NCBI GenBank assembly: GCA_015660995.1
Contig: JACTUC010000008.1
Location: forward strand, 10,645 to 74,644
Reading direction: 5' to 3'
Source of the DNA: Candidatus Methanomethylicaceae archaeon
GTDB taxonomy: Archaea; Thermoproteota; Methanomethylicia; Methanomethylicales; Methanomethylicaceae
Length of the DNA: 64,000 bases
Shown: piece by piece, positions 40,193 to 57,980 of the stretch
How positions within the stretch are numbered: position 1 is the first letter of the stretch
How the letters are laid out: each line of letters begins with the position of its first letter
The notes under the pieces: generated by a model
Database searches by the model: none
Told to the model about the DNA's origin: nothing
Seen by the model: only the letters and a program-made list of their open reading frames with translations
Position numbers and translations under genes: made by a program

Positions 40193-40250
40193 GCCCGGAC
40201 AATTAAATTATTGATTGGAAAATGCGAGCAGATGCAGCCCTTAAGATAAT

Positions 40251-40283
40251 GTGTGCGGGATTGAAATTTAACCCCAACCCCAA
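40251..40283. repeat. Island palindrome copy (GTGTGCGGGATTGAAATTTAACCCCAACCCCAA), at the core/island boundary
   Basis: First copy of the GT-rich / AT core / CA-rich motif. Lies just after eno. Confidence 0.6.
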
Positions 40284-40420
40284 TCTGGATTAAGGAAGGG
40301 TCCCTCTGGCAGGCCACGGGACTGGCATTCATTACTCCTACCAAGTAGGAGGTTTATGTCTCCTAAAACCTATGACAGCACTCAACAAAACTATTAAATA
40401 ACAAAATTCCATGTAAGAAA

Positions 40421-40984
40421 GTGGATCTGCCAATGAGTTCTTTTACGGTGCTCAAATCCATCCTCCGCTACTACCTTAGGTACATTGTTGGTTCTCCGCT
40501 ACCCTTCCTCTCCCACCAGGCCTTCTCTGAGTACATAATCTCCGAGAGCAGTAGGTATGAGAAATATTACATTCCTCCTATAGACCTCAAAGATAAAACC
40601 GTTCTTGATGTTGGCGCGGAAGAGGGGTGCACTGCTCTCTTCTTCTTCAAGCATGGTGCCAAAAAGGTTATCTGCATCGAGCCACAGCCCGAGGCCTTCG
40701 CCAACCTGAAAAAAAATGCCGAGGCTCTCAAGTGGAATGCCATTCTCATCAACGATGTCTTTAAATTAGATCATCTAAGCTTGGACGTCAATTTCATCAA
40801 GATGAACATCGAGGGCTATGAGGCACTGATCCTAGATCAACCAATTCCAAAGATTCCTATGGTGATGGAGGTCCACGGCCTGTGGCTCGTCGACGAGTTT
40901 GTAAAAAGAGGGTGGCATAAAGCCTCTGGGAACGATGCCACGCATTGCAGGGCAATGCTCAACAATTGGGGGGTTAAAATTTAA
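40421..40984 (+). CDS. FkbM-family SAM-dependent methyltransferase
   Basis: VLDVGAEEGCTALFF (motif I) and FIKMNIEGYE (FkbM motif). Confidence 0.6.
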   Translation: MDLPMSSFTVLKSILRYYLRYIVGSPLPFLSHQAFSEYIISESSRYEKYYIPPIDLKDKTVLDVGAEEGCTALFFFKHGAKKVICIEPQPEAFANLKKNAEALKWNAILINDVFKLDHLSLDVNFIKMNIEGYEALILDQPIPKIPMVMEVHGLWLVDEFVKRGWHKASGNDATHCRAMLNNWGVKI

Positions 40985-41042
40985 TTCCCACACATATTGG
41001 AAAAACAAAATAATTATACAAAAAAAGAAGTGAGAAGTATTT

Positions 41043-41615
41043 CTATCCTGTTATGTTGCCTGCCAGGACTACAATGTATTCGGTTGAACCAGTGCTGAAG
41101 TCCAGTTTGAGATTAGCTGTTAGGACACCACCGAAATTACCTTGGGCATCGGCGCGAATCAGTAATACACCGCCTGGGTTGGTCTGCCCCTGGCCCACAA
41201 GTGCTTCCGCATAGCGTCCCGTCTGGGCAGCGCCTGACGTAATGGTGTAGGTTGTACCGTTGATTACAATTTCCCCGCTAGTCAATGTCAGGATATACCC
41301 TGCCTTCAGTGCATTTGTCACGGTGAAAGTCATCGTTCCAGAGGCGTCTCCATGCTGGCTAGGATCACCGACTACCTTGAAAGTGCCCATTGTGCTTGTG
41401 ATAGTTATTGTCTGACCCACCGAAAGGTTGGCCGGGATCCCACAGTCACACTTGCGATCGATGGCGGGCATCACGTTATTTGGGGTTGCATTTGTGGTCG
41501 CTGCTATGTTCAGGTTTGCAAATACACCGGGTGTTACTGCCAGAAAGGTGAATATTCCCAGCACTGCCAGGAGTGCCACTATCACTGTGGCCTTTTTGGA
41601 TATTTTCATTGCCAT
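41043..41615 (-). CDS. Secreted hypothetical protein (signal peptide, G/T-rich beta-rich domain)
   Basis: Sec-type signal peptide MAMKISKKATVIVALLAVLGIFTFLAVTPGVFA. No known domain. Confidence 0.45.
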   Translation of the reverse strand: MAMKISKKATVIVALLAVLGIFTFLAVTPGVFANLNIAATTNATPNNVMPAIDRKCDCGIPANLSVGQTITITSTMGTFKVVGDPSQHGDASGTMTFTVTNALKAGYILTLTSGEIVINGTTYTITSGAAQTGRYAEALVGQGQTNPGGVLLIRADAQGNFGGVLTANLKLDFSTGSTEYIVVLAGNITG

Positions 41616-41722
41616 TTGAAATCACCAGGGAAAAACTCCTAAACCAAACGGATTTAACCACTCCCTTTGTCGATATCTCGACTGGAAATTCGAAATTTCG
41701 AAAAAGTCTGTACCATTAAAAT

Positions 41723-41748
41723 CTAATCCCCACACATTTTAAAAAATG
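41723..41748. repeat. Island motif half-copy (CTAATCCCCACACATTTTAAAAAATG)
   Basis: Upstream of the start of minus-strand gene 41043..41615. Confidence 0.5.
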
Positions 41749-41855
41749 TCAAAAGAGTGACAAAAGTGGTAGCCTGTGGTAAGATGACCTATTCTTGTCT
41801 TGTTCATGAAATTCAAACCTCCATCCCTCGTAGGCACCTCTTTGTTGTTCTTTGC

Positions 41856-42974
41856 CTATACTTTCCTCGGTAATCCGAAAGTCAGGATAAACCCGATCAT
41901 TGCTACAGCGGCCAGAAAAATAAGAGTGTAATAGGGAAGAGATATGATCTGACCTACTGTAACAAGAACTAGTATCGCGAAAATGTGTCCTATGAGCATT
42001 ATGAAGCCTGTGATTTGCCCCTGGGACTTATGTTGGATGAATTTCTCGATCCATTCAAAAATTATCGGCCAAGCACTCAGAAGGAAAAAACCGTCCAGAA
42101 TGAGCCATCCCGAAACCCATACAACGTTTTGCCAGATCGCTATTGCTAAAAAAGTGAGTGCTGTGTACAACGATGCTGCCATCAGAATATAGGTTCGTTT
42201 GTTGTGTTTTGATACAATTTGAGGAATAATTGCTGAACCAATAATTCCAGAAATGATCACGATCCCAAGGAGAGAACCAGCAACATCTCCAAGCCCAAAT
42301 TGTGAAAAGATGGGCTGCAACCAACTTGATAAAGAATCAAATATCCCTAGTCCAACAGCAAGTATTCCTCCAAGGATCCATAACTGCTTTTCCTTGAGAA
42401 TCTCTTTTAAACCTCTTGAATAAAATGCAACTTGAATTTGGTCGGAAGAGGGAATCTCCTCCGCTCTAAAAAGAACTGCTAGGCTCCATATGGTCGCCAC
42501 TGCAGTTATTATTGCAATTACAGTTTCAAGGTAAATTATTCCTCCAAGCTGATAGAGTGGATAACCTATGGCCATAGCCACTACGATTCCGGTGTAAATA
42601 CCAATGCTCGATATCGATACTGCGGTTACCCTCTGTTTATCTATAAAATACTTCCGCGCAAAAAGCGGAATTGATGAGAGAATAAACGGCTGTGCAATGG
42701 CACCAATAATCTGGGTGCTGAAGATGAACCCAAAAGATAAGGGATCCAGAAGCCTTCCTATCCCGGCAATTGCATTAAGTACTATTCCAATCAATAATGC
42801 TTTTTTGAAGAATGAATCCAATGCTCTGCCCGATGGTATGGCTAATAGTATATATACAATAGGATACATGACGGCTAAGTAACCTACATACAACACATTT
42901 ACATTAAAAACTGTAGCCATGTAGGTTTCTACAGGAGAAAACGTTACCCAAATTGCCTGGGACGATAAAACCAA
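41856..42974 (-). CDS. MFS-like transporter
   Basis: 10-12 TM helices with an MFS-like loop PSGRALDSF. Downstream of the decarboxylase on the same strand. Confidence 0.55.
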   Translation of the reverse strand: MVLSSQAIWVTFSPVETYMATVFNVNVLYVGYLAVMYPIVYILLAIPSGRALDSFFKKALLIGIVLNAIAGIGRLLDPLSFGFIFSTQIIGAIAQPFILSSIPLFARKYFIDKQRVTAVSISSIGIYTGIVVAMAIGYPLYQLGGIIYLETVIAIITAVATIWSLAVLFRAEEIPSSDQIQVAFYSRGLKEILKEKQLWILGGILAVGLGIFDSLSSWLQPIFSQFGLGDVAGSLLGIVIISGIIGSAIIPQIVSKHNKRTYILMAASLYTALTFLAIAIWQNVVWVSGWLILDGFFLLSAWPIIFEWIEKFIQHKSQGQITGFIMLIGHIFAILVLVTVGQIISLPYYTLIFLAAVAMIGFILTFGLPRKV

Positions 42975-43039
42975 TAATGAGTATCCTATAAGTACAAATG
43001 AAAAGGTAGACTTACTATCAGTCCTCGTGGTTAAGTCTC

Positions 43040-44512
43040 CTAGTTGTCTTTCTCGTCCTTCCTAGTTGGAGTAAAGACCTCATTCACTATCGTCTTGAAT
43101 AATTTTTCAACTAACTCGCTAGGCATGGTTCTAATTAATTGATTGATCAAAGTCATCTGCGAACCACTATCTTCATCAGGGGTACTCAGTGAATGAGAAA
43201 TAGCGGCTACAAGCGAATTTAGTTCCTCTGGATTAAAACTGATGCGGGAAACATCGTTGATGCTTTTATCCCGATTCTGAATATTTTTGTTCCTGACCGA
43301 TTCTGTGCATGTCTTCAGAGACTCAATGAATGGCTCAATGGAATACTCATGAGCAGCGGTGATAGTCATATGTAAAGATGCAACATTATTCAGCTCTTCG
43401 GAGCCGGGCTGGACCTGAAGATACCACCCTTTGGATTTCATCAGGTCTGCGATCTGGAAAATATTAACATCGCCTCTTCTAAAAGCCACGATGCTCGCCT
43501 CCGGTTTGCCTAGAATTTCGTAACCTAAGCCTTCAAGACCCCGTATCAGCTTCTCTCTTGCAATTAGCACTTTTTTTGATAGTTCTATGTAACCTTTCTT
43601 TCCCAAATAGTTCAAGGTTGCCCATGATGCAGCAAGGGGTCCTTCCGATCTCGTTGATTGAAGTGTGGTATTTGCCATTGGGTATCCAGGCCAGCTAGCA
43701 TTCGTGAATAATTGATGTATTCTTAGTTCTTTGGACCTGTAGAGTATCACTGAAGCACCTTTTGGAGCGTAGCCGTACTTGTGAAGATCAGCAGATATCG
43801 AAGTAACTCCCCTGACTGAAAAATCAAATTCAGGCAACTTCTCTCCTAGCAATCTGAAAAACGGAAGGATAAAGCCGCCTATGCAGGCATCCACATGTAA
43901 CCTTACACCCTTCTCTATGGCAATCTCTCCAAGACTTTCTATTGGATCAATAACTCCAATAGGATATGATGGTGCAGAACCAACAATAAGCGCTGTATTT
44001 TCATTTATTCTTCTTTCAACATCCTCAGCTTTTACTTTAAATGTCTTCTTGTCTACGGGGACGACCGTCAAGGTCATATCAAAAAAATCAGCCGCTTTGA
44101 TAAATGAAGGATGGCCAGTGCTAGGTATAATTACTTCTGGTCTTCCTGAACCTCCACATTTGTTTGCCCTATGGTAATCTCTTGCAGACTTTACAGCAAG
44201 CATATTGCTTTCTGTGCCACCACTCGTAAAGTTTCCAACAGTTGTATTATTTCCATTGAGGAGAGATGCAGTCATGGCCACAATATCATTTTCAAGCATA
44301 AGCACACTAGGAAAGACTGTAAAATCAAGGGCGTTCTTGTTCATGAATTCCCAATAAAATTCTCGGATTCTATCAAGTTCTTTATTTCCAGATTCATATA
44401 CATATGAAAATAATTTTCCTTTGTTATCCGGCATATCATGCTTTGAGAATTCACGAAGACCCTTACGAATCTCATAAAAAGACAGACCATCATCTGGCAA
44501 ATCTTTTAACAT
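43040..44512 (-). CDS. PLP-dependent group II decarboxylase / sphingosine-1-phosphate-lyase-like enzyme
   Basis: SGGTESN and SADLHKYGYAPKGASV (Lys of HK binds PLP) match the SPL/GadA fold-type I family. 490 aa with the N-terminal extension typical of SPL-like members. Confidence 0.75.
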   Translation of the reverse strand: MLKDLPDDGLSFYEIRKGLREFSKHDMPDNKGKLFSYVYESGNKELDRIREFYWEFMNKNALDFTVFPSVLMLENDIVAMTASLLNGNNTTVGNFTSGGTESNMLAVKSARDYHRANKCGGSGRPEVIIPSTGHPSFIKAADFFDMTLTVVPVDKKTFKVKAEDVERRINENTALIVGSAPSYPIGVIDPIESLGEIAIEKGVRLHVDACIGGFILPFFRLLGEKLPEFDFSVRGVTSISADLHKYGYAPKGASVILYRSKELRIHQLFTNASWPGYPMANTTLQSTRSEGPLAASWATLNYLGKKGYIELSKKVLIAREKLIRGLEGLGYEILGKPEASIVAFRRGDVNIFQIADLMKSKGWYLQVQPGSEELNNVASLHMTITAAHEYSIEPFIESLKTCTESVRNKNIQNRDKSINDVSRISFNPEELNSLVAAISHSLSTPDEDSGSQMTLINQLIRTMPSELVEKLFKTIVNEVFTPTRKDEKDN

Positions 44513-44640
44513 AAGATCATGATAATAATATTCTCAGCCTTACTTAAGCGTTGATGATATGCTAGGCAGATGGTGAATAGACTAAGGCATTATTTTCTAT
44601 GCGCGGGGGTTAATTCAATTCTTTCTCCTGCTACTGTGTT

Positions 44641-45414
44641 TCATTCCGGAAGCTCCCGTCCGAAGCGCGACTGGACGTCGTATAATGCCCACATCAAGGT
44701 GAAGATGAAGTTGTATACCCAAAGCTTCGGATCCGATCTTGTATATCTGAATTCTCTGACTGAGGCGCGTATGCTCTGCTTGGAGAGAACGCTCTTCATA
44801 GTCTTATAATGTCGACAGTAGGAAGCGAAGCTCTTGACGACCCGGTAGTTCTGGGATAGGATCCACTCCCTGATGTAGGCGTCTTCCAGCGTGTGAAGGT
44901 GGCTCGGGATGTGCAAGTCTTTTACTGCCTCGCGACGCACCAGGAGGTCGTGGCAGCCGCCCCTTAGGTCGAAGACGCGTGACTCCATCCAGAGAAGCGC
45001 GCTGACCATCCGCCTGTTCGTAACAGCTCCAGGGATGTCGACCCCCCAGACCGCGCCTACGTCTGGCTCTCTAAGCCTGCTTGCCTTCTGGAACCAGTCC
45101 CTGCAGAGGACTACGTCGCTGTCGACGAAGACGAACCATTCCGTCTCGACCTCTTGCATCCCCCTATCCCGCGCCTCTCCTCGGGTACCAGTCTCCTCGA
45201 TCACCTTCACATTGCCATACTTGCTTCTGAACTCATCGAGAATCTGGAGTGTGAGGTCCTCTGAATGGCCGTCAACGGCGATCAAGCGATTCACCGGGAC
45301 ATTCTCATATATAGAGCTGAGGCAGTCTCTGAAAATGCCGTCGCTATCCCTGGTCAGGATAACTACGTCGACCTTCTCCATGGTGGTTCTTGATCTCGGT
45401 TTCCTAATTAGCAT
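44641..45414 (-). CDS. Family 2 glycosyltransferase
   Basis: VVILTRDSDG..., DGHSEDLT and FVFVDSDVV (DxD) motifs. Confidence 0.7.
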   Translation of the reverse strand: MLIRKPRSRTTMEKVDVVILTRDSDGIFRDCLSSIYENVPVNRLIAVDGHSEDLTLQILDEFRSKYGNVKVIEETGTRGEARDRGMQEVETEWFVFVDSDVVLCRDWFQKASRLREPDVGAVWGVDIPGAVTNRRMVSALLWMESRVFDLRGGCHDLLVRREAVKDLHIPSHLHTLEDAYIREWILSQNYRVVKSFASYCRHYKTMKSVLSKQSIRASVREFRYTRSDPKLWVYNFIFTLMWALYDVQSRFGRELPE

Positions 45415-45494
45415 TTCTCCTTGAGCATCTTAGTTCCCAGGAGCCAGCTCGCGATGGTCCTGGACCTGACCTAGACAGAAGCTGGACAAAGGGA

Positions 45495-45553
45495 GTGTCT
45501 GTGGGGGTTAAACTTTTGTTTTTTTTACTTGCACACGGGGCCCCACATTAAAT
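45495..45553. repeat. Two facing half-copies (GTGTCTGTGGGGGTTAAAC ... GCACACGGGGCCCCACATTAAAT)
   Basis: Divergent promoter region between the GT2 gene and the first DUF72 gene. Confidence 0.5.
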
Positions 45554-45588
45554 ATGTTTGAAGGATATATCCTCCATAAAAAAGGAAG

Positions 45589-46533
45589 TTGTATATTTTG
45601 GTGGAGTTGTACGTCGGCGCAGGGGGATGGGCTTACTTCATAGTTCCAGATGAGAGCCCTTTAAAGGCCTACTCGAAGACTTTCAACTTCGTAGAAGTGA
45701 ACTCGACTTTTTACGAAATCCCTCAACCCGGTGCTGCAGACGCTTGGAGGAGGGCAGTGCCGCAGTCATTCAGGTTCGCAGTGAGGGCCAATAAGGCGAT
45801 AACCCACAACGATCCATTCGCGCCTTCGCCGGAATCTGAAGACGCACTGCAGGCTACTTTGGAGGTATGCCAAGCGCTAAAGGCAGACGTGCTCCACTTC
45901 CAGACCCCCCAATCATTCAGGATTGGCGATATCGAAGCAAAGCGGATAGGCGATTTCTTCAGTACACTGAATGCGGGCAGCATGCTCTTGGCACTGGAGG
46001 TGAGGGGCGCTTCAGGCGGGGATCTTCCCCATAGCCTAGTAAAGGCAATGCAGGACAATTATATTATCCACTGCGTCGACCTACTGAAAGGCGAAGCGCC
46101 GGCATATGCCGCCGACACACTCTACACCAGAACCTTCGGCAAGGGTGATCACAACATATACCAACCCGATGATGGTGAGCTCAAGGCGGTACATATGACT
46201 GCTTCCATGTACACGAAAGCATACGTGGCCTCCCACAGCGCTAAAATGTACTCAGACGCTGCAAGGCTGATCACATTTGGCAAGACCGGCAAATTCCCCA
46301 TGGTAACCAAGTGCACAGGGCTGAATTCGCTGACTTCTGTCTTGGAAGAGGACGCCAAGTTCCCAGCGACTAAGGACGAGCTGATAAAGAGGCAGGGATG
46401 GAAGCTCTATGACGCATCGGAGGAAGTGAGGGTCAGGGCCGAGGAGCCGCTGAGTAAGCTGCCAGACAGGACTTATGGCAATGTAAATGACCTCTTGCAA
46501 GAACTACATTATCAGGGAGGCGGGGCAGTCTGA
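45589..46533 (+). CDS. DUF72 (UPF0759) family protein, divergent paralogue
   Basis: VGAGGWAY...NSTFYEIP aligns to the DUF72 N-terminal GTSGWSY...STFY motif of the next gene. Confidence 0.6.
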   Translation: MYILVELYVGAGGWAYFIVPDESPLKAYSKTFNFVEVNSTFYEIPQPGAADAWRRAVPQSFRFAVRANKAITHNDPFAPSPESEDALQATLEVCQALKADVLHFQTPQSFRIGDIEAKRIGDFFSTLNAGSMLLALEVRGASGGDLPHSLVKAMQDNYIIHCVDLLKGEAPAYAADTLYTRTFGKGDHNIYQPDDGELKAVHMTASMYTKAYVASHSAKMYSDAARLITFGKTGKFPMVTKCTGLNSLTSVLEEDAKFPATKDELIKRQGWKLYDASEEVRVRAEEPLSKLPDRTYGNVNDLLQELHYQGGGAV

Positions 46534-46547
46534 CTGGCAGGATCCTT

Positions 46548-47399: not shown

Positions 47400-47474
47400 A
47401 AAGGTAATAGTGCGTATTTTGGTCGAACTTCTTTTGCCCTAGAATTCTATTGTTTTGTGCACGATTTGCCATGA

Positions 47475-48083
47475 TTATAGGGTTTTTTCAAGGGTTTCTA
47501 GGTTGAAACTTGTGTTGGTGCAGCCATTTCTTATCAATGGGATGGCCTGTCCTGCAAAGCCCATCTGCCTAAGGCCTTCTGCCCCAAGCTGCACCTCCTG
47601 CCCACAGGCGACACCAACTATTCCATCATATTTGTCTTTCTTCAAGATATTGAGGATGCAAGAGCTACCCGGCAATACGTAAACATTGTACCCATTCTTC
47701 TTGCCCATTTTGGTTGCCCTGTTTATGAGGCAGTCTTCTGAACACTGGCCACAGATATAGGATGGTATATCTGGGTTGAAGGTGGACTTGCACCTGCTGT
47801 CCATATACTTTCTTGAGCAGTGCGGCAGTAATAGCGCCCTATTTTTTGTCCCCTCAAAGCGTTTCCGCTCTGAAAGATTCTGTGAATATACATCTACCAA
47901 GTCCTCAACCAATTGGAGCGTCTCGGGCTCATCCAAACCGGTGATCTTGGTAAGGTTATGGGCTAGGCGTTGCGTTTTCATATCAAATCTTCTTCGAAGC
48001 TTATTCTCGCCGGCAACTTTAGCAAGCTCAATGAAAAATGATTTTGGGATACTGGAGAGATCAAAACTGAACTTGTAAGGCAT
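47475..48083 (-). CDS. DUF116-like cysteine-rich protein
   Basis: LLLPHCSRKY...C...CGQCSEDC cysteine pattern, characteristic of the archaeal DUF116 family. Confidence 0.45.
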   Translation of the reverse strand: MPYKFSFDLSSIPKSFFIELAKVAGENKLRRRFDMKTQRLAHNLTKITGLDEPETLQLVEDLVDVYSQNLSERKRFEGTKNRALLLPHCSRKYMDSRCKSTFNPDIPSYICGQCSEDCLINRATKMGKKNGYNVYVLPGSSCILNILKKDKYDGIVGVACGQEVQLGAEGLRQMGFAGQAIPLIRNGCTNTSFNLETLEKTL

Positions 48084-48105
48084 ACATTCTGCTTACATGC
48101 GTTCG

Positions 48106-48143
48106 AATTAAATATTTCCCCCACAAACACAAAAATTTTTTAA
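48106..48143. repeat. Island motif copy (TTTCCCCCACAAACACAAAAATTTTTTAAAAATACCCC)
   Basis: Immediately upstream of the DUF116 gene start. Confidence 0.5.
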
Positions 48144-49322: not shown

Positions 49323-52300
49323 TTGCAACTGGTGTCTCGTTCCAAATTTGACTCATTCAACTCATTCATCAGACGCTTCCATCGGCAGATAATAATTGTC
49401 TGGGTCGTGGCGCTTGTGTTCTCGGCTGCGGTGATACCTAGCTTCTTCTCTGGCGTCTCCTATAACATCACTACCCTGGCCAGCTCAGGAGCCCCCCAGA
49501 ACACAGAGTCTCAGATCGCCCAGAACATATTGGACGCACAGTTTCCCTCCTCTAACGGTAGCGGAGACAATAGCATCATACTGGTTATCCAGAACCCGAC
49601 CCCCGGCCTATACTCGGATGCCGTGAAGAACGCTGTCCTCCAGCTCGAACGCACCGTAGGATCCGATCCCAGCCAGGTCAACTATACAGGTGCATCGAGC
49701 ATCTATTCGACCGAGAGCGATCTTCTGAACTCCTCGCTGCCTGGTTTCATCCAGGGCGTGGCGTCCATGGACTCCAACATCACCGCGGTCAACCAGGCCG
49801 TCTTCTCCTTGGAGCAGAACCTTTCGGCCCTCAGCTCCGGCCTCTTCCAGCTGGCGCAGGGGATAAGCCAGACATCTCAGCTGGTCTACGGCATACCCAC
49901 TGCCTTCGTTGGGATCTGGGGTGGAATAGTAGGCGCTGGAGAGACGAACATGACCATCGCCAACCAGGAGGCCAACGCGACCATCTTCGCCCAGACGGGC
50001 AACTTCGGTGGCGACCAGCAGTCAGTGGGATACTATACCGCCTTCTTCGCCTATTGGAGCGCGAGCTTCCAGACAGCCCCCACCCTCACGCCGCTCCAGA
50101 GGGAGGCAGCTGCCATCAGCGGAGCAGTCACCCAGCTAACCTCCAGCCCCTACCTGGACAATGCAACAAAGGTCCTGATCCTAAGCGTGGCCAACGGGCT
50201 CAACGTAACCAGCTGGAACCAGGCCAGCGCCCTAGGTAACCTTACGGTAGAAACATTCGCATCTCAGGTGCCGAGCAGCCTAACCTCGTCCCTTGGCGTT
50301 ACGCCCAGCGACCTCGTGGCCAGCCTCTACAGCCTAGGTCCTTCTCCGTCAGTCGCGGCCCTCACCAACCTTACCATCCCCCTCATCGCGAACGCCTTCG
50401 GCGGCTCCTCCGCGCCCATAGCTGGTTTCTCGATCACTGACTTGGTCGCAGCCTCCTCCTCCCTTGGGCCTTCGCCCAGCCAGAGCGCTGTTTGGAACCT
50501 GGCGGCAGAGTTCTTCTCAAATACGACGGCGAGCGCCCTTGAGGCATCGCCCCTCTTTACGGTCAATGCGACCTCCCTCAGTGGCCTCCTCTCGGGCCTC
50601 AGTCCCTCCAGCTCTGCTGCCCAGCTAGCGAGCGCAATAGACGCCGTAGTATATAATGAGAGCTTCTCCAACTATCCCCTTGTACTCTCAAGGTCCCTGA
50701 CTCAGAACTTCGTGGGGACAGAGAATGACACCATGATTGTCGTGTTTAGTTACTCTTCAACTCTTAGTCCCGACACCCTCGCAGGGTTCCAGCAGGACGT
50801 GAAGAGCTCAGACCTCTCATCAATGGCGACGACCTACGTCACCGGCGGGGCTGTGATCAGCCATGATTTTGAAGACGCCTTCAGCCCCGTCATTGGAGCG
50901 ATCTCGAGCGTCGGAATCGTTGCCTCCATAATTATCGCCATAATCCTCTTCGGGGCACCCCTTGCGGCCATCCTTCCGCTGCTTCTCGGGGGCATCTCCA
51001 TAGTTATCGGCTACGCAGCCATCTACCTTGGCGTGGTGGTAGCCGGAAGCGGCAAGATAACCTTCCTCACACCTACACTGGCTACGCTCATCATGCTGGG
51101 CCTAGCCGTTGACTACTCTGTCCTTCAGCTCCGAAGGATGAAGGAGGAGAGGGCCAAGGGAAAGTCAAAGGAGGAGAGCGTGGCCACATCGGTCAGATGG
51201 TCCGGCCAGGCCGTGCTTACTGCAGGGATTACCGTCGTCGTAGCCTACGTCATCCTGGCGGTGGTGAACGTGCCCATATTCAACGACGTCGGCGTAGCCA
51301 TAGCCCTGGGGGTCTCCATCCTTCTTCTGGCGTCGGTGACGCTGCTTCCGTCCCTTGAGCTGCTACTTGGGGACCGCCTCTTCTGGCCTCGCCTAAAGGT
51401 TAACAGTCACGAATCAAAGCCTGGCCGCCTAGCAAGGGTATCCGATGCTACCCTCAAGAGAAAGGTGGCAGTCACGGTGGTGATATCGCTCTTCGCTGTC
51501 TGCGCGGTCGCAGCTGTGGCCAGCACCCCCACGGGGCTCGACATTCTGAAGCTCATCCCGAACACCCAGAGCAACCAGGGCCTGACGGTCATGACGAACA
51601 GCCTGGGCGGTGGAACCATCTCCCCCACATCGATTCTGGTCACAATGCCCTCCGCCATAGTCTACGGAGACAACCAGTTTAACCAGACGCTACTGAACCA
51701 GATCGAGCTCATATCGTCCAAGGTAGCTGGCTCCTCAGGCGTGGTTAGCGTAACGGGCCCCACCAGGCCCTATGGATCTTCATTCAATTTCTCGTCCATA
51801 GGGGAGATGCCTGAGCCCATCCTCTCCCAGTACCTAGACGGCATGCTCTCCTACATAGGAAAGGACAACACCACAGCGCTCATATCCGTCGGATTCAATT
51901 CTCCCATGATGAGCGCCCAGTCCGTCGCTTCACTGGATAAATTAGAGTCCCAAGTGAAGTCCACATCCCTCATTAATGGGGTCGTTGTGCATTATGGCGG
52001 AGAGGCTTCCCAGACGAAGGATAATGAGCAGTTCATAAATGGGCTGATACCGGAGATCTTGATCATCCTCTCCATAGCGGTCTACCTGATCCTGTTCTTC
52101 CAACTAAGGTCCGCCTTTACGCCCCTCAGGCTTATCTTCACCATCCTCTGCAGCGCGGCCTTCTCTCTGGCCCTGCTTGACTTCACCTTTACTTACATAC
52201 TGAAGCTGCCCGTGCTCAACTTCGTGGCACTCTTCGTGATAGTGACCATGCTGGGCGTCGGCATTGACTACGACATCTTCTATGTTACGAGAATACGAGA

Positions 52301-52595
52301 GGAGATCCTGAACGGGAAGACCGACGACGAAGCGATCAAGACTGCCACAACCAAAGTCTGGGTAACCATCTTCGGCCTAGGACTTATACTTGCGAGCATC
52401 TTCGCCTCCCTTCTGGTGACTGGAATCCCCGTGCTCGAGGAGATCGGCCTGGCGGTTGGGGCGGCCGTGCTGATCGACGTCTCGGTGGTCATCCTCTTCT
52501 TCGTGCCGTCCTTGATGGCCCTGGCCGAGAGGTTCAACTGGTGGCCATCCAAGATCGGAAGAAGCTCTGACAAGACGACTCCATCGAAAAGCTAA
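49323..52595 (+). CDS. MMPL/RND-superfamily giant membrane exporter
   Basis: 1090 aa. TM1, an extracytoplasmic domain of about 480 aa, 5 TM helices, a second extracytoplasmic domain and 5-6 TM helices (duplicated RND topology). Markedly higher GC than its neighbours. Confidence 0.7.
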   Translation: MQLVSRSKFDSFNSFIRRFHRQIIIVWVVALVFSAAVIPSFFSGVSYNITTLASSGAPQNTESQIAQNILDAQFPSSNGSGDNSIILVIQNPTPGLYSDAVKNAVLQLERTVGSDPSQVNYTGASSIYSTESDLLNSSLPGFIQGVASMDSNITAVNQAVFSLEQNLSALSSGLFQLAQGISQTSQLVYGIPTAFVGIWGGIVGAGETNMTIANQEANATIFAQTGNFGGDQQSVGYYTAFFAYWSASFQTAPTLTPLQREAAAISGAVTQLTSSPYLDNATKVLILSVANGLNVTSWNQASALGNLTVETFASQVPSSLTSSLGVTPSDLVASLYSLGPSPSVAALTNLTIPLIANAFGGSSAPIAGFSITDLVAASSSLGPSPSQSAVWNLAAEFFSNTTASALEASPLFTVNATSLSGLLSGLSPSSSAAQLASAIDAVVYNESFSNYPLVLSRSLTQNFVGTENDTMIVVFSYSSTLSPDTLAGFQQDVKSSDLSSMATTYVTGGAVISHDFEDAFSPVIGAISSVGIVASIIIAIILFGAPLAAILPLLLGGISIVIGYAAIYLGVVVAGSGKITFLTPTLATLIMLGLAVDYSVLQLRRMKEERAKGKSKEESVATSVRWSGQAVLTAGITVVVAYVILAVVNVPIFNDVGVAIALGVSILLLASVTLLPSLELLLGDRLFWPRLKVNSHESKPGRLARVSDATLKRKVAVTVVISLFAVCAVAAVASTPTGLDILKLIPNTQSNQGLTVMTNSLGGGTISPTSILVTMPSAIVYGDNQFNQTLLNQIELISSKVAGSSGVVSVTGPTRPYGSSFNFSSIGEMPEPILSQYLDGMLSYIGKDNTTALISVGFNSPMMSAQSVASLDKLESQVKSTSLINGVVVHYGGEASQTKDNEQFINGLIPEILIILSIAVYLILFFQLRSAFTPLRLIFTILCSAAFSLALLDFTFTYILKLPVLNFVALFVIVTMLGVGIDYDIFYVTRIREEILNGKTDDEAIKTATTKVWVTIFGLGLILASIFASLLVTGIPVLEEIGLAVGAAVLIDVSVVILFFVPSLMALAERFNWWPSKIGRSSDKTTPSKS

Positions 52596-52673
52596 GCAGG
52601 CACATGTTTGCCCAGGAGAGAAAGAGAAAGAGTAGGACTCAACAACTCGCTTCTTCTTACTCTCTCCTACTAA

Positions 52674-52949
52674 GTGCGCACACAACGCACGCGCGAATTT
52701 ATATACAATGAAGCTTTACTAATGATGGAGTTCTTTGAAATGGCAGAAAAAGGAAAAACTACTGACAACCGCAGCATGCATGTAACCATTCTGGGCGTAC
52801 TAGGAATACTCTTCGCGATCATTGGAGCAGCAATAATTGCTATTCCTGGTATGCCTGGGCGAGGCTCAGGTATAGGCACTGGCTTAGTTGTGATAGGTGT
52901 CGTGCTGCTGGTCATTGCTTTCTTAAGGCTTTACTACAAGCGCCCATAA
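52674..52949 (+). CDS. Small two-TM membrane protein
   Basis: ILGVLGILFAIIGAAIIAI and GLVVIGVVLLVIAFL helices. Start may be the internal MAEKG. Confidence 0.35.
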   Translation: MRTQRTREFIYNEALLMMEFFEMAEKGKTTDNRSMHVTILGVLGILFAIIGAAIIAIPGMPGRGSGIGTGLVVIGVVLLVIAFLRLYYKRP

Positions 52950-53045
52950 TGAGTCTTCTTTTATAGACTCATCCATTTTCTTCTTTTTTCCATATATTTT
53001 GTGTCGTGTGCACAGTTGACTGGCAAAGTGACAGAGTGACTGACT

Positions 53046-53090
53046 CCACACACGCGGGTTTATATGATTAAATTAATCCCCCACGCACAC
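53046..53090. repeat. Island motif copy (CCACACACGCGGGTTTATATGATTAAATTAATCCCCCACGCACAC)
   Basis: Intergenic, between the small membrane ORF and the nucleotidyltransferase-kinase gene. Confidence 0.55.
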
Positions 53091-53146
53091 AAAAACCGAA
53101 CCACATCGGCCCCACTATTTTCCAAGTAATAATCCGGCCCAATGAC

Positions 53147-54829
53147 TCAAGGATTATCAGCATCAGCTGACGAGTACTTTTCAAGTGTATGTCTAACAAT
53201 ATGAATCATCTTCGAAGTTAGGAATGGTAAGAATGGTATCAGATATCTAATGTTCTTCGCTTTTGCAACAACTTCGCCACTATTCTCACTACGATAGCCG
53301 GTGAGGAAGGCTTCAGCGACAAGCTTTATGCCTTCCTCCCTCGTTTTGTTATCCTTCTTCTCTCCTTTCTTCTCCAGGCGCGTTGCAGAAAAATAGAGAA
53401 ATTCGGCGAGGTCCCAAGCCCTATCGCCGTTCTCCACAGCCTGCTCAAGGTCTAGAAGATCTATTCCATCCTTACCCACGAGCGCGTTCCCTGGCTTCGT
53501 ATCTCCGTACACCAAGCCAGCCTTGTGCAGTTTACCCAATATCTTGCCATATTTTGCGATGTTGCTCGTGTCTGTACTTTTCCCACTGATTATCTCCTCG
53601 ACGAATTTTGAGAGCGGGGTGCCATTGACATACTCTGTTACCAGGGTCCTTTCGTCTAGAACAATGCCGATTATATCGTGAGTTTTGATTCCGAGTTCAT
53701 TCAGCCGTCTGACACCTTCGACCTCTCTGTTCAGTCTTGAGAGAGGGCTCTGGTTGAATCTCTTGGCGACGAGTGACCAAAGATTGAGAAATGCCCACTT
53801 TATTGACTTCAGTTCGGGGAAGTGCTTGAGGACATACTTGACTCGTCTTTCATCGTCCCAGATTTCCAGCTGTTGAGTAGAGTTGATGAAATCTCCCTTT
53901 TTCTTCTGTTCGTATTCGTAAGTTTCGCCGAAGCCTCCTATTTGCGCAAGCTCTTCGATCATCTTGGTTGCATCGTCAAAGATTACCCCTTCCTCAAGTC
54001 GAAGAAGTTTGTTCGGCCGATCGAGCTCGACCATGGATTCAACCTTCCCCATCATTTTCAGCTTGGCGAGAGGCCTAGTCTTGAACCCATATCCCAACCT
54101 ATTAGCAAACCCGTGAACCACGTATCGAATGGCGCCCCTGCTCTCCAACGGAAACATTTTGTGAAGCTCAGTGAGTGCATAAATACGCTTCTTTCTCCCC
54201 CTGAAGATCCTAACAGAGTCACCGATACTCTCTATTATTCCGTTTGAAGCAAGCGATTCTGCCGCTTCTCGAAATCCTCGAAGCGTGAACTCTATGTTCT
54301 CTTTCCTCTGATCAGACGCGTAGGTGCGGGCGTAGCTGAACATCGCTTCTGGGTAGGCAAGAGCCCTCTTGTGCAGCTTATCAAAGAGAAAGTATTCGTG
54401 AGGAATGATCAAGTTTGAAGAAAAGTCGCCGTAGTCTGACTGGATCTCAATCAACTTTTCTGCTATGATTCTCTTCTTGTATTCAACCTCGACGCTCCCC
54501 AGGAACTCCGCGTTAACAATGGGTTCATAGATGTTCAGTAACCTGCCTATTACGAACTCTCCAACCGAAGGTTGCTTTGCGTCCTTCATTAGGGCCGTCT
54601 CTTCTATGATGAGTGGTGGTGACTTGGTAGGCTCTTGTTCATGCCTCTCTGCTACACTCGCATTGACGTTCTTCGCGACTATTATCATGTCATAGTCAGA
54701 ATCTTTTCTTGCATACCCCGCAACTCTTGAGCCATAGGCGCAGAGGGAATAGATCTCCTCTTTCTTGACCAATAACTCGGCGAGAGCGAGAATCTTGGAT
54801 CTCTCCATGTCAGTAAGCTTGCTGTTCAA
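53147..54829 (-). CDS. Fusion protein: N-terminal minimal nucleotidyltransferase domain + C-terminal RIO/Bud32-like atypical kinase domain
   Basis: The N-terminal CAYGSRVAGYARKDSDYDMIIV matches the GS...DxD nucleotidyltransferase fold. The C-terminal LHKAGLVYGDTKPGNALV...GIDLLDLEQAV matches the catalytic and metal-binding loops of RIO/Bud32/Kdo-type kinases. Confidence 0.6.
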   Translation of the reverse strand: MNSKLTDMERSKILALAELLVKKEEIYSLCAYGSRVAGYARKDSDYDMIIVAKNVNASVAERHEQEPTKSPPLIIEETALMKDAKQPSVGEFVIGRLLNIYEPIVNAEFLGSVEVEYKKRIIAEKLIEIQSDYGDFSSNLIIPHEYFLFDKLHKRALAYPEAMFSYARTYASDQRKENIEFTLRGFREAAESLASNGIIESIGDSVRIFRGRKKRIYALTELHKMFPLESRGAIRYVVHGFANRLGYGFKTRPLAKLKMMGKVESMVELDRPNKLLRLEEGVIFDDATKMIEELAQIGGFGETYEYEQKKKGDFINSTQQLEIWDDERRVKYVLKHFPELKSIKWAFLNLWSLVAKRFNQSPLSRLNREVEGVRRLNELGIKTHDIIGIVLDERTLVTEYVNGTPLSKFVEEIISGKSTDTSNIAKYGKILGKLHKAGLVYGDTKPGNALVGKDGIDLLDLEQAVENGDRAWDLAEFLYFSATRLEKKGEKKDNKTREEGIKLVAEAFLTGYRSENSGEVVAKAKNIRYLIPFLPFLTSKMIHIVRHTLEKYSSADADNP

Positions 54830-55097
54830 ATCTTCATCTCCTCTGGCCGGTCTGGTTCAAGTATTCGTTTCACCCTAATCTTAGTCTTCCGTATGCTATC
54901 CTTCGTGCTCATTAAATTTTAGCCCCAAACCCACTAACTACTATTCTACTGGTAAGATAGGGAAATGAAACTCCATCAGCTTCAAGAGAGCCACCATCAA
55001 TAGAACGCTCTTAGTTGAACTAAGAGAACTCTGCTTGTCATCAAAAAGAGAGATGGGAAATGCAGAGTTATTAACAACTTGAAGTCTATTTATTGCC

Positions 55098-55505
55098 ATG
55101 AAGAAAAACATCTACATTGTTGCGGGTGTTGCTGTCATCGTTATAGTAGCAGCCATTGTGTTTTTTGGATCCCCTCTATTGATGCCAGGCCAACGAGTGA
55201 TAATCACAAATTTTGAGCTAAACACAAACAATCCCTACGACGTTTATTCCTCCGCCTCAAACCCTTTACCAACAATATATACTAATGATGTTTTCAATTA
55301 TACATTTAGTTTATGGGGGGGAAGGGAATTTACAATTAATAGCATCTCCTTAACGCAAGGATTCTCTTTAGTTTCTTCTAACACTTCGTTACCAGCTTCA
55401 GAGCCAAACATAGGTCAAGCAATATCTCTTCAGCTCAGGATCAAAGCTCCGAGCCAAGCTTTCAATGGAACACTCGTGATTACGGTTGACACAACAATTC
55501 ATTAA
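55098..55505 (+). CDS. Small N-terminally anchored extracellular protein (paralogue family with 12615 and 60501)
   Basis: Signal anchor, several NxS/T sequons, and a C-terminal LRIKAPSQAFNGTLVITV motif shared with the 12615 protein. Confidence 0.45.
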   Translation: MKKNIYIVAGVAVIVIVAAIVFFGSPLLMPGQRVIITNFELNTNNPYDVYSSASNPLPTIYTNDVFNYTFSLWGGREFTINSISLTQGFSLVSSNTSLPASEPNIGQAISLQLRIKAPSQAFNGTLVITVDTTIH

Positions 55506-55532
55506 TCTTTAACCCCCCAAACCCAAACGGCT

Positions 55533-56273
55533 TCATTTAGGAAGGCGGAAGATGTAGACCCCCCAGCCCAAGACACCCCTCTCCCACCGAAGATAGTATT
55601 CCTTCTCCCTCCCCTTCCTCTCCATCAGCTCTGCAAGGTCGGGATCGTCAGGTTTTGCTTTGGAGTATTCGTTCACGGCATTCCACTGGAGCGTCTCGTA
55701 ATTGTCCCAGTCGTCGAGGCTGCTCTCCATGGCATAGACACAGTTGAGACTATGCTCCTCCCCGATAGCGATATTCCCGCCAAATCCACTGGCGTAGTCT
55801 TCCTTTTTTTGTGAGGTCAGTCTGAGATACTCCGGATCGGGCTCTTTCGACCAAAATGGTTCGCCTGTCACTATGAGTCCCCAAGGGACGACCATGCTCA
55901 GCAGTGCCTTCAGCGTTCTTGCATAGCCTCCGTAGATAAAACTGGCGCCAAGGCATATTGCGATGTCGAACGGAGCTTCAGGCTTATATTGAGAGCCATC
56001 CATGAGGAGGAACTTTAGGCCCGACCCAGGTACCCTCTTTCTCTGCTTTTCAAGACATTCTTCGATGGAGTAGGGGGATATGTCCACGCCCATGCCAGCA
56101 ATATTATAAAGCTCTTCTAGCCTGATGAGAGTCTCACCCTTGCCGCATCCCATATCCAGTACCCTCCCCCCTGGGCTTAGCAGTCTGCACATCCGATCAA
56201 ACTTTTCTCGGAGAAGTGGATTGCATATCAAATGGTGTCGATGCGTGATGTCATAATATTTCCAGGTGTCCAT
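55533..56273 (-). CDS. Class I SAM-dependent methyltransferase
   Basis: VLDMGCGKGE (motif I), GVDISPY (motif II), LLMDGSQY. Confidence 0.75.
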   Translation of the reverse strand: MDTWKYYDITHRHHLICNPLLREKFDRMCRLLSPGGRVLDMGCGKGETLIRLEELYNIAGMGVDISPYSIEECLEKQRKRVPGSGLKFLLMDGSQYKPEAPFDIAICLGASFIYGGYARTLKALLSMVVPWGLIVTGEPFWSKEPDPEYLRLTSQKKEDYASGFGGNIAIGEEHSLNCVYAMESSLDDWDNYETLQWNAVNEYSKAKPDDPDLAELMERKGREKEYYLRWERGVLGWGVYIFRLPK

Positions 56274-56354
56274 GATGAAAACTCGGATACAATCTGTATT
56301 AAAGTCTACTTTCTTATCATTGAGTTGGATATGGAAAATAGAAAGTAAGTTATT

Positions 56355-56388
56355 GTGTGTGTGGGGTAAATTTTAATCCCCCACACAC
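56355..56388. repeat. Full island palindrome (GTGTGTGTGGGGTAAATTTTAATCCCCCACACAC)
   Basis: Near-perfect inverted repeat around an A/T core, upstream of the MTase gene 55533..56273. Confidence 0.7.
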
Positions 56389-56402
56389 GCTGTTCGATCT
56401 AG

Positions 56403-56855
56403 CTATCGTAATCCTTTCTCCATAGTATTTACCAGAGAGTTTACTACCCGTTTTTGAACTACTCCCTTGGCTGCCTGTTTCGCAACTGATAACCTATCGT
56501 GGAGAATCGTGTGTTGCTTAATTTTGCCATCATCAATTTCATAGATACAGATCCCAAGCGTTTCATATTTCATGCCTTGATAGGAAACTGCCTCTAGCAT
56601 GTACTCGTAAACAGCCTTATTGCCATTTACCACAAGTCCTATTCCAGCATCCTTAAACTTTACCTGACGATTCATCTTGAAAGCCCAAGTCAAATAGCGC
56701 TTCACTTCCGCCTTGCCTTTGAACATTCCCTCGGGAACTTGCCAGACAGTGTCTTCTGTAAAAAAGGAAAGTGTGCCATCCACATCCAGCTTCATGTATG
56801 CATCATGAAAATTGCGTATAAGCGTCTCAACATTCTTCTCAGACGTATCACTCAC
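56403..56855 (-). CDS. SnoaL-like / NTF2-fold protein
   Basis: FHDAYMKLDVDGTLSFFTEDTVWQ is a typical SnoaL/ketosteroid-isomerase-like N-terminus. Confidence 0.55.
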   Translation of the reverse strand: MSDTSEKNVETLIRNFHDAYMKLDVDGTLSFFTEDTVWQVPEGMFKGKAEVKRYLTWAFKMNRQVKFKDAGIGLVVNGNKAVYEYMLEAVSYQGMKYETLGICIYEIDDGKIKQHTILHDRLSVAKQAAKGVVQKRVVNSLVNTMEKGLR

Positions 56856-57052
56856 CTCCTACTAACGACCATCTTCCGCGGCTTCCTCCCTCCCATAATC
56901 CGAAATGCAATCTATCACGAGGGGCGCCCTTCATTTTTTCACTCACTACATTCTATTATGGGAAGTGTGATATACGCTACACGTAACACCAGCCAAGAGA
57001 GAAATGGTTACTCACTAGTAACCATAGTTAGTAGTTAGTCGTCAGTCAGTAG

Positions 57053-57087
57053 TGTGTGTGGTAAAAATTTAACCCCCCACACACACT
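57053..57087. repeat. Full island palindrome (GTGTGTGTGGTAAAAATTTAACCCCCCACACACAC)
   Basis: Divergent intergenic region between 56403..56855(-) and 57115(+). A further half-copy lies at 57137-57172. Confidence 0.7.
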
Positions 57088-57114
57088 GGATAATAGAAAT
57101 TATGCAAAAACCCA

Positions 57115-57630
57115 GTGAGATTGAATTTCATTTTTTTTATAATTTCGCATGTGTGTTTGGGTTTGGGATTAGATTATATATGCTATGGAAACAAAGATGA
57201 AATCGGTGATTTCGTGCCTATACCTAAAGAAGTTCAGGATGTGTACAATGATCCTGCAGCCATAAAGGTGCTCGCCACAAGATCCGGAGACGACCTTCAT
57301 GTGATACCCTTGGGCTCACTCAGGGTAATGGATGCCAACACCATAGTCTGCGCCTCGATACACATGCGGGAGGCCCACGAGAACCTTCGTGTTGCAGCCG
57401 AGACTGGAGCGAAAATTTCCACCTTGGCAGTAAAGACTGGACCAGGAGGACCGCCGCAGGCGTATCAGGTAAGATGTCGCGTGAAGGCATTCGTGACCTC
57501 TGGTCCCCTCTTCGAAGTGATGAATGAGAACCTTAAAAAAAGAGGGATGGAAATGCGCGGCGTGTGGATCCTTGAGCCTTTGGAAGTCTTGGACCAGTTC
57601 GGACCGAACGCTGGCAAGAAGATTGCATAG
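57115..57630 (+). CDS. Hypothetical protein (true start probably downstream, about 57200-57230)
   Basis: The first 25 codons overlap a copy of the island palindrome (CATGTGTGTTTGGGTTTGGGATTAGATT) and look non-coding. The remaining roughly 130 aa have a beta-rich, split-barrel-like character. Confidence 0.35.
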   Translation: MRLNFIFFIISHVCLGLGLDYICYGNKDEIGDFVPIPKEVQDVYNDPAAIKVLATRSGDDLHVIPLGSLRVMDANTIVCASIHMREAHENLRVAAETGAKISTLAVKTGPGGPPQAYQVRCRVKAFVTSGPLFEVMNENLKKRGMEMRGVWILEPLEVLDQFGPNAGKKIA

Positions 57631-57641
57631 TGCCGTTGCCA

Positions 57642-57665
57642 GGTGTTTGTGGGATTAAAATTTAA
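57642..57665. repeat. Island motif half-copy (GTGTTTGTGGGATTAAAATTTAAC)
   Basis: Downstream of the 57115..57630 gene. Confidence 0.5.
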
Positions 57666-57947
57666 CTTTTTTTTAATTCAACCGCATACATCTTTGGATA
57701 ATGATATAAGAATGGCTGATTGGAAACTACTATCCGAAAGGAAGAACATCATTCATGAGGAGGTATAGATACGAAATGGACAACTAGAATAGTAATCATA
57801 GTCGTACTAACAATAATAGTAATACTAATAGCAATGGGAATACATCAGGGATGGTTGTAAAGTTATAAATACAAATGCTAATGGAGATAGCATCTTTCTT
57901 CCTGCATTCTCTACAATGTAACATTCTATGCTTTCTAGGTGTGTGTG

Positions 57948-57980
57948 GGATTAAATTTTAATACCACAAACTCTAGGTGA
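57948..57980. repeat. Island palindrome copy (GTGTGTGTGGGATTAAATTTTAATACCACAAAC)
   Basis: Upstream of the DUF1294 gene. Confidence 0.6.

Follow-up and report, generated by a model that had tools for sequence, protein, structure and literature searches.

In the archaeal DNA analysed here, a stretch of 64,000 nt called the window throughout (Candidatus Methanomethylicaceae archaeon, assembly GCA_015660995.1, contig JACTUC010000008.1, positions 10,645 to 74,644 of the forward strand), an AT-rich palindrome with G-rich and C-rich arms recurs between the genes of a low-GC island. We observed the same element in about 60 genomes of Bathyarchaeia. Judging from sequence, we tentatively read it as a repeat widespread in this class, with a symmetric promoter-like core (a TATA box between two transcription factor B recognition elements, BRE-TATA-BRE); some copies would be active promoters, and copies would stand at module boundaries and act as junctions of recombination or gene conversion. 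We place this composite reading slightly short of an even chance.

The proposed mechanism is as follows. The core would consist of two overlapping BRE/TATA promoter cores facing in opposite directions; TBP and TFB would occupy it in either orientation, and transcription would start ~25 nt away on either side. With a G-rich 5′ flank and a C-rich 3′ flank, each outward strand is nearly free of G up to the predicted start. Copies would mark the boundaries of independently arranged modules, of genes or of non-coding RNA, in low-GC flexible DNA and, because they are near-identical repeats of 17-35 bp, would also be where different modules become joined by recombination or gene conversion.

The occurrence of the motif in the window was confirmed to be real and far beyond chance. 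A search with CCCCCACACAC (at most one mismatch) produced nine matches, all past 45 kb, while 0.67 were expected from shuffled sequences; the core GATTAAAWTTTAATC (at most three mismatches) was found at eight sites, all within 40.2-58 kb, against an expectation of ~1. We also used a sequence-only profile (R1) derived from 48 sites, none of them from the window: 43 came from other genomes and five from the same genome past the window end. Run with filters off, the profile identified nine sites with E<0.01 (40249-40283, 40966-40992, 41715-41734, 53056-53089, 54911-54934, 56354-56388, 57051-57085, 57643-57665 and 57939-57973) and two marginal ones (57156-57175, E = 0.13; 55508-55525, E = 0.5), all of them within 40.2-58 kb; there was no profile site in the first 40 kb, where the top match reached only E = 0.45. 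At 40.2 kb the GC content of the window drops from ~0.55 to ~0.45. Among intergenic gaps longer than 25 nt, 11 of the 17 located at 40.2-58 kb hold a copy, against none of the 25 before 40.2 kb (Fisher p = 3e-6).

A sequence-only reading had previously reported the motif in this region and none in the first 40 kb, and the shuffle counts and the profile agree with it on both points. Its list of half-sites stands in part: 45495, 45531, 48106 and 52664 fall below the profile threshold (45495 and 48106 are an arm with a degenerate core, recognised by eye only; 45531 and 52664 are doubtful), while the other positions were recovered, two of them marginally. An origin by chance, or as a compositional artefact of AT-rich intergenic DNA, deserves practically no credence. 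A bare core does turn up by chance in AT-rich phage DNA; still, the shuffles fell far below the observed counts, a profile from outside the window recovered its sites with E down to 3e-8, and skewed arms were seen in Bathyarchaeia only.

The copies in the window are listed below, hyphens separating the parts of each.

40251..40285: copy 1, GTGTGCGG-GATTGAAATTTAACC-CCAACCCCAATC, core with two mismatches, profile E = 2e-5; tandem gap, 59 nt past the enolase stop and ~150 nt before the start of an FkbM-like methyltransferase.
40966..40995: copy 2, GGGGGG-GTTAAAATTTAATT-CCCACACAT, profile E = 3e-5; convergent gap.
41714..41736: copy 3, CATTAAAATCTAATC-CCCACACA, single arm, profile E = 0.007; 106 nt from the start of the gene 41043-41615(-) and ~128 nt past the stop of a major facilitator superfamily (MFS) gene.
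45495..45518: weak half-site seen by eye, GTGTCTGTGGGGG-TTAAACTTTTG followed by a T-run, profile E>10, membership uncertain; divergent gap between GT2 and DUF72 genes.
48106..48130: weak half-site, AATTAAATATTT-CCCCCACAAACAC, below the profile threshold.
53056..53090: copy 6, GGGTTTATATGATTAAATTAATC-CCCCACGCACAC, profile E = 0.003; convergent gap between MMPL/small ORF (open reading frame) and a nucleotidyltransferase/kinase-like gene.
54910..54934: copy 7, CATTAAATTTTAGCC-CCAAACCCAC, single arm of CCCAAA type, profile E = 0.002; divergent gap.
55500..55528: marginal half-site, CATTAATCTTTAA-CCCCCCAAACCCAAAC, profile E = 0.5; convergent gap of 27 nt.
56354..56388: copy 9, near-perfect 34-nt palindrome GTGTGTGTGGGG-TAAATTTTAAT-CCCCCACACAC, profile E = 2e-6, hairpin of -12.1 kcal/mol (z = -5.7); 15 nt past the stop of a SnoaL-like gene and 98 nt before the start of a methyltransferase gene, whose own proximal box, TTTAATA, stands 27 nt ahead of the ATG at 56273.
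57051..57087: copy 10, palindrome TGTGTGTGG-TAAAAATTTAACC-CCCCACACACAC, profile E = 2e-4, hairpin z = -4.1; divergent gap.
57150..57181 (+): marginal half-site, TGTGTGTTTGGGTTTGGG-ATTAGATTATATAT, profile E = 0.13.
57642..57679: copy 12, GGTGTTTGTGG-GATTAAAATTTAAC-TTTTTTTT-AATTC, profile E = 6e-6; a T-run takes the place of the second arm and the core end is then repeated; 11 nt past the stop at 57630.
57938..57971: copy 13, GGTGTGTGTGG-GATTAAATTTTAATA-CCACAAAC, best profile match, E = 3e-8; 64 nt upstream of the DUF1294 start.

The claim that all copies are intergenic holds for most of them, the exceptions being two that overlap stop codons. The stop codon of the ORF 55098-55505 lies inside a half-site (55500-55505). 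In the ORF 40421-40984 (the FkbM-like methyltransferase, ending in NWGVKI) the G-arm and half core of copy 2 (40968-40986) supply the final five codons and the stop.

The conserved unit of the element is a 15-17-bp AT-rich palindrome, GGATTAAAWTTTAATCC, with the invariant form GGATTAAA-W-TTTAATCC. Its dyad symmetry is perfect, with half-sites of 7-8 bp arranged about one central base. The arms are variable, strand-skewed microsatellites of 8-20 nt: (TTGG)n, (GGGTTT)n, (GT)n, (GA)n, (GGAA)n or (GC)n on the G-rich 5′ side, and mirror classes of these on the C-rich 3′ side. The pattern used to scan other genomes, AWTTTAAYCCCMCACACAC, fixed just one arm; thus, the opposite side provided an unbiased sample of arms. 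Read outward from the core, the arms contain 5-6% G, compared with 15% beside chance cores in phage DNA. The depletion of G on the outward strand extends from +7 to ~+24 from the centre (G makes up 2-7% at +7 to +17 and climbs to 12-18% by +24), i.e. up to the predicted start site, and is not seen at the chance cores.

Within a site, the arms resemble each other no more, and if anything less, than randomly paired arms do: identical positions number 4.10 of 12, compared with 4.77±0.18 when partners are shuffled, and both arms belong to the same class once, against 3.7 times expected. Since arm partners are no more alike than random ones, the GT/CA palindrome described from the window alone turns out to be a special case of variable, unmatched microsatellite arms. 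Its three instances (56355, 57053 and 57940) are indeed the sole good palindromes and hairpins of the window, and the same three, out of six copies folded, beat their shuffles; the arms are in general non-complementary, and we rejected a conserved hairpin or cruciform. The flavour of the arms is genome-specific: the window genome has GT/CA and CCCAAA with G4/C4 clamps, several others have TTGG/CCAA, and a third group combines GGAA with a core variant, AATTAAA; orthologous positions bear different arm types. Microsatellite length did not vary among ~20 strain contigs (99.6-100% identity), which showed no indels. A variant architecture, consisting of a half-core, an A/T run of 8-12 nt and a full core (GGATTAAAA-AACAAAAAAAAG-TTAAAATTTAATCC), was seen in the strain contig L148 at 3005-3057 (its junction with positions 3034-3048 of L146, which represents the window genome) and, as a mirror image, at window 57653-57679.

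Read in both directions the core gives ATTAAA and WTTTAATC, as expected of an AT-rich TATA box of ~8 bp bordered at either end by a purine/A-rich BRE, and each half resembles the tRNA-Glu promoter of the same genome, GAAAACTTTAATTG. The earlier impression that the A/T core looks like an archaeal TATA box is supported by this resemblance, and also by the fact that symmetric BRE-TATA-BRE motifs are documented: in Pyrococcus they give sense and antisense starts ~50 bp apart, both in vivo and in vitro (PMC6640164). Two half-sites of the window are close enough to genes to suit a promoter. The AT part of the one at 48106..48130 has its centre ~29 nt ahead of the DUF116 start (- strand), the promoter distance for a leaderless mRNA. 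At 57150..57181 a G-arm and then a TATA-like box lie ~42 nt upstream of a probable GTG start at 57214 (gene of 138 aa), itself preceded by the Shine-Dalgarno sequence GGTGAT; this half-site is likely to be the proximal promoter of that gene.

In many Bathyarchaeia a (CA)5-armed core is located a short distance upstream of conserved multi-copy non-coding units, and this distance is fixed in the species concerned, which are other than that of the window. In two such loci (L037 and L048) the upstream proteasome gene ends in its own T7 terminator before the site, and there is no other TATA box between the site and the non-coding unit. One could expect the central A/T base to set the direction of transcription; we rejected this, as both bases are about equally common upstream of oriented units. 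The units themselves (L054 451-700 and 2440-2640; L019 2738-3000; L037 2746-2950; L048 1320 and 2583; others) fall into two sequence families, one of which is made of 58-nt tandem units with 9-bp-stem hairpins, GAGGGGTAA-N13-TTACCCCTC. They have no Rfam match and are missing from the window. We likewise rejected a known RNA family as the identity of the element, since the window, the island (E<=0.1) and 16 related loci gave no match.

To assess distribution we scanned one genome per species (185,579 species) with AWTTTAAYCCCMCACACAC. We observed 77 matching loci, of which ~60 were metagenome-assembled genomes (MAGs) of Bathyarchaeia of many species from peat, soil and sediment, so that the element, contrary to what had been supposed, is not specific to the island. 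In the genome pieces examined from other organisms (8-21 kb each) we counted 106 core sites in 416 kb of Bathyarchaeia loci and two in 104 kb of non-Bathyarchaeia loci. Within the window genome, copies are confined to low-GC segments, including six copies located 6-9 kb past the window end and three further on; they skip GC-rich operons (an ABC transporter with a helix-turn-helix regulator; transhydrogenase genes). Low-GC Bathyarchaeia carry the element abundantly. In motif-independent samples scored at E<=0.05 it was absent from 40 kb around methyltransferase homologues of relatives with 0.55-0.57 GC, from 41 kb around DUF6144 homologues of two genomes with 0.47-0.48 GC, and from 14.5 kb of a further contig (L172).

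The composition of the island is that of the element-rich low-GC lineages, which fits acquisition of the island from such a lineage; no tRNA gene or integrase was found at its edge. Of the proposal that the motif is a dispersed repeat/miniature inverted-repeat transposable element (MITE) of foreign origin, the dispersed repeat in low-GC DNA stands and a foreign origin is consistent with the sequence. The MITE does not stand: a MITE would conserve an internal sequence of 50-500 bp, but here conservation is limited to the 15-17-bp core, the flanks are unrelated, and neither terminal inverted repeats nor target duplications are present. A viral origin or viral promoter was rejected too: a scan of viral contigs gave only armless chance cores in AT-rich phage DNA, and the island genes are non-viral. 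The only virus-like gene seen beside the element encodes a phage portal protein (L076 277-1683(-)) and adjoins a four-site cluster in a Thermoproteota MAG contig.

Of 114 core sites in 62 Bathyarchaeia loci and the window, all but one (113) fall outside ORFs of >=90 aa. We saw no bias with respect to gap type among 97 sites compared with 329 background gaps.

Convergent gaps: 29 sites, 74 background gaps.
Tandem (+ +) gaps: 26 sites, 88 background gaps.
Divergent gaps: 25 sites, 88 background gaps.
Tandem (- -) gaps: 17 sites, 79 background gaps.

There is typically one site per intergenic gap, in gaps of all types, and in site clusters the sites flank single genes or small operons in either orientation. 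The bracketed genes are of accessory types (GNAT, S-adenosylmethionine-dependent methyltransferases, glyoxalase, SnoaL, OsmC, CMD, DUFs). Altogether, 113 site-adjacent genes matched 95 Pfam families, none of which was present in more than three genes; most are accessory enzymes, transporters and hypotheticals, with proteasome and TFB genes also among them, and the commonest families include no recombinase. The diversity of these neighbours led us to reject a regulon, and the idea of a shared operator for an island-wide regulon fails equally on the scattered distances and on the ~60 species. Orthologues of the SnoaL-like and DUF6144 genes retain the element 9-12 nt past the stop codon, with a different arm type or a decayed core.

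Strain-level and interspecies comparisons placed breakpoints at cores. About 20 strain contigs (99.6-100% identity) are collinear with the window island and gap-free across it, with a single exception, contig L148. This contig matches the window genome (L146) at 99.95% identity, without gaps, for 17.9 kb, and then loses homology entirely at the third base of a perfect core. Past this point the window genome has six site-bracketed genes, while L148 has four unrelated genes and no sites. The junction in L148 bears an additional half-site, in the half-core/A-T-run/core arrangement described above, and is the sole strain-level breakpoint seen. The chance that a breakpoint would fall in any of the 11 cores of the locus is ~0.008, or ~0.04 if breakpoints are limited to non-coding DNA. 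In comparisons between species, a core lay no more than 25 nt from 21 out of 78 internal homology-block ends, compared with 1.5% expected by position; the count is 8 of 29 when redundant SnoaL pairs are removed. At site 57949, within copy 13, several strains carry three linked single-nucleotide polymorphisms (SNPs) in 19 nt (arm G>A, centre T>A, and A>C restoring TTTAATCC) against a background of 0.24% polymorphic positions, a patch that looks like gene conversion. Thus, copies turn over, are homogenised within genomes and are preferred junctions. This would follow from a dedicated recombinase as well as from ordinary recombination among repeats of 17-35 bp.

The SnoaL-like gene itself (window 56403-56855(-); contigs L084-L091) showed an unusual pattern of identity. 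At the nucleotide level it is 88-91% identical between the window and the contigs and 93-97% among the contigs, and this identity is limited to the ORF (from about -5 to +12 nt), the neighbours in the contigs being otherwise unrelated; the amino-acid identity of 78-84% is below that of the nucleotides. Such a pattern suggests that the ORF may be mobile or gene-converted. Inverted repeats GGGTTCTGTTAACTCTTAGGG flank the SnoaL block in L086 (374-387(+) and 1186-1199(-)); the repeat is also found in L089 (5850-5863) and L090 (6728-6741) and is missing from the window. Relative to a 66-nt flank, the block is inverted in L086 versus L090. Short GC-alternating palindromes of the type TAGCGCRCGCGCTA recur at homology-block junctions and SnoaL flanks (L084-L090), and occur also as an alternative arm type beside decayed cores.

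Several independent metagenome contigs end ~0-80 nt from the two best palindromic copies: at window 57028 (L171), 57944 (L170) and 58037 (L169), and also at positions matching 15367 and 16261 of L146. The element probably breaks short-read assemblies.

A number of observations weigh against the promoter-and-junction reading. Convergent gaps, where a promoter would yield antisense RNA only, are not depleted of sites (29/97 sites versus 74/329 background gaps); in the window, 3 of 13 copies (40966, 53056 and 55500) sit between convergent genes, which also undoes the statement that copies are mostly found directly upstream of gene starts. The spacing between core and start codon varies widely (median ~200 nt); it shows a weak excess at 50-90 nt and lacks a sharp peak. 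Several neighbouring genes have a proximal TATA box of their own between site and start, and tRNA genes are without the full element. Exact matches to the pattern number just 1-2 per Mb in complete long-read MAGs, and therefore a genome would hold tens of copies, in clusters; the element is not a general promoter. The collinearity of ~20 strain contigs implies that rearrangement is infrequent, and breakpoints at repeats could be a by-product rather than a function. Finally, no model accounts for the arms, with their many repeat types, differing partners and genome-specific flavour.

The breakpoint data could also be explained if the element were a dedicated att-like site of an unidentified recombinase, with genes and small operons as orientation-free cassettes, analogous to an integron array, and with an incidental likeness to TATA. 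The breakpoint inside a core, the enrichment of homology ends at cores and the clustering of sites around single genes of accessory type whatever their orientation are what such a system should produce; the arms of one site tend to differ in type, as if each belonged to a different neighbour, and the SnoaL-like gene, at 88-97% nucleotide identity, appears in unrelated neighbourhoods. We nevertheless consider this explanation unlikely. Neither ~45 kb around the clusters nor the 113 neighbour genes revealed an integrase, transposase or recombinase; the island is collinear in the strain contigs; the exact strain-level breakpoint is a single one; and the ~7-8 bp conserved per half-site would make a short recombinase arm. 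We rejected the idea that the SnoaL and DUF6144 genes move as cassettes from site to site, as their homology ends with the ORF (-5 to -37 and +9 to +12) and not at the far sites. A bolder version, which we regard as quite unlikely, would have Bathyarchaeia exchange orientation-free cassettes by a system integron-like in function yet unrelated to integrons: the core would be the crossover, modules would gain a two-faced promoter or insulator, and the arms would be a by-product or a structural part.

Perfect dyad symmetry conserved across the class would equally suit a dedicated dimeric DNA-binding protein, either a global operator protein or a nucleoid or insulator protein at transcription-unit boundaries that blocks or modulates transcription of neighbours. 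The usual single site per gap in every gap type, often 60-200 nt upstream of genes with their own TATA box, agrees with this; the neighbouring genes, however, share no common function, the spacing to promoters is not fixed, no candidate protein was found, and the basal factors TBP and TFB account for the conservation more simply, so that we deem such a protein rather improbable. Doubtful, to a somewhat stronger degree, is a selfish repeat, similar to repetitive extragenic palindromes (REPs), that has no host function, is spread or homogenised by gene conversion or by an unknown transposase, and is tolerated only between genes. Its strictly intergenic dispersal, indifference to gene orientation, genome-specific arm and core flavours, conversion-like patch and clustering in flexible low-GC DNA would all be explained. 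Against it, selfish repeats usually diverge while here the 15-17-bp core is the same across many species; hairpin potential is not shared by copies in general; terminal repeats and target duplications are absent; no RAYT (Y1 transposase) or IS200-like gene was found nearby, RAYT being absent from the island genes of the window and from the 113 site-adjacent genes; and the position kept 9-12 nt past the stop in orthologues suggests constraint. That position is one of the arguments for a bidirectional terminator or 3′-end element, at which incoming polymerase, having transcribed the G/U-rich arm, would stall in the pure A/T core of 13 nt and be released. In the window the median distance from site to stop codon is ~40 nt (two overlap), that to the start codon ~100 nt, and across genomes 12 of 101 stops but 3 of 93 starts are within 40 nt of a core. 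Yet the T-runs of the core are only T3-T4, 26% of sites (25/97) are in divergent gaps where no terminator is needed, the proteasome gene of L037 and L048 has a separate T7 terminator upstream of the site, and arm strength is independent of the kind of gene end (3′ or 5′) that the arm faces, for which reason arms as 3′-end-specific signals were rejected. We find a terminator very unlikely.

Some features of the window outside the island were noted in passing. With 26.3 bits (E = 0.002), a tRNA-like sequence at 22883-22959(+), in the 320-nt gap 22670-22989, did not reach the gathering threshold of Rfam. Its T-arm is canonical, it carries a 3′ CCA, and the region around it is rich in GC and looks structured; ARAGORN may have missed an atypical tRNA here, or one with an intron. 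At 8288-8392 and 17463-17557 there are two long tRNA genes, whose 95-105 nt presumably include introns. Rfam detects both; the built-in ARAGORN call gave only 17463-17557, as tRNA-Arg(tcg), while with intron search the two were called tRNA-Ala and tRNA-Glu.

Bathyarchaeia are among the most abundant archaea of sediment and peat and are essentially uncultured. To our knowledge, there is no experimental information on their promoters or on how their flexible genome is assembled. A near-invariant 17-bp element present in dozens of species is thus a candidate promoter or insulator for genetic tools and for the interpretation of metatranscriptomes, as well as a sequence tag for flexible gene modules and recombination junctions in MAGs; if cores are indeed recombination sites, they would represent a new route of gene shuffling in archaea.

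No paper describing the core sequence, Bathyarchaeial promoters or such intergenic palindromes was found in the library searched, and we have seen no description, for dispersed repeats or promoters, of skewed arms of many repeat types beside one core. Several known systems do share some of the properties of the element. Bacterial REPs and interspersed mosaic elements (BIMEs) are likewise short, dispersed, strictly intergenic palindromes that are homogenised within a genome and are hotspots of rearrangement. REPs, however, conserve the stem and form hairpins, while the Bathyarchaeial element conserves the centre and has variable, mostly non-complementary flanks; it is also archaeal, is not depleted in divergent gaps and has no RAYT-like gene that we could find.

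In integron attC arrays and CALINs (clusters of attC sites lacking an integron-integrase), archaeal ones included (PMC9668308), single accessory genes are split by short imperfect palindromes, similar to what we observed here, where one strain-level breakpoint in gene content (L146 versus L148) falls at a site. An attC site is 57-141 bp long, has conserved R′′/R′ ends (R′′-L′′...L′-R′) and acts as a folded bottom strand; the Bathyarchaeial site has 15-35 bp and a conserved centre. Integron cassettes mostly share one orientation and lack promoters, whereas the genes between Bathyarchaeial sites have both orientations, many with TATA boxes of their own, and no IntI, attI or Phage_integrase was found in ~45 kb of the window genome. 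With archaeal oligo-T intrinsic terminators the element shares A/T-rich tracts, often shortly past stop codons; the terminators have >=5 T, while the core has 3-4 T, occurs in divergent gaps and may be preceded by a separate T7 terminator.

The intergenic repeats of halovirus HF2 (PMC8707807) are also short, AT-rich, located between genes in low-GC or foreign DNA, and actual or possible promoters. They are virus-specific direct repeats of 29-58 bp, in contrast to a chromosomal, palindromic and class-wide element that was not found in viral contigs. The BRE-TATA-BRE motifs of Thermococcales (PMC6640164) have the same AT-rich TATA box with mirror-image BRE-like flanks, on which a pre-initiation complex is possible either way. 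The Bathyarchaeial element differs from them in that its core is a near-invariant 15-17-bp perfect palindrome across many species, flanked by strand-skewed microsatellite arms, and in that its copies are rare (tens per genome), clustered, equally common in convergent gaps and usually far from starts.

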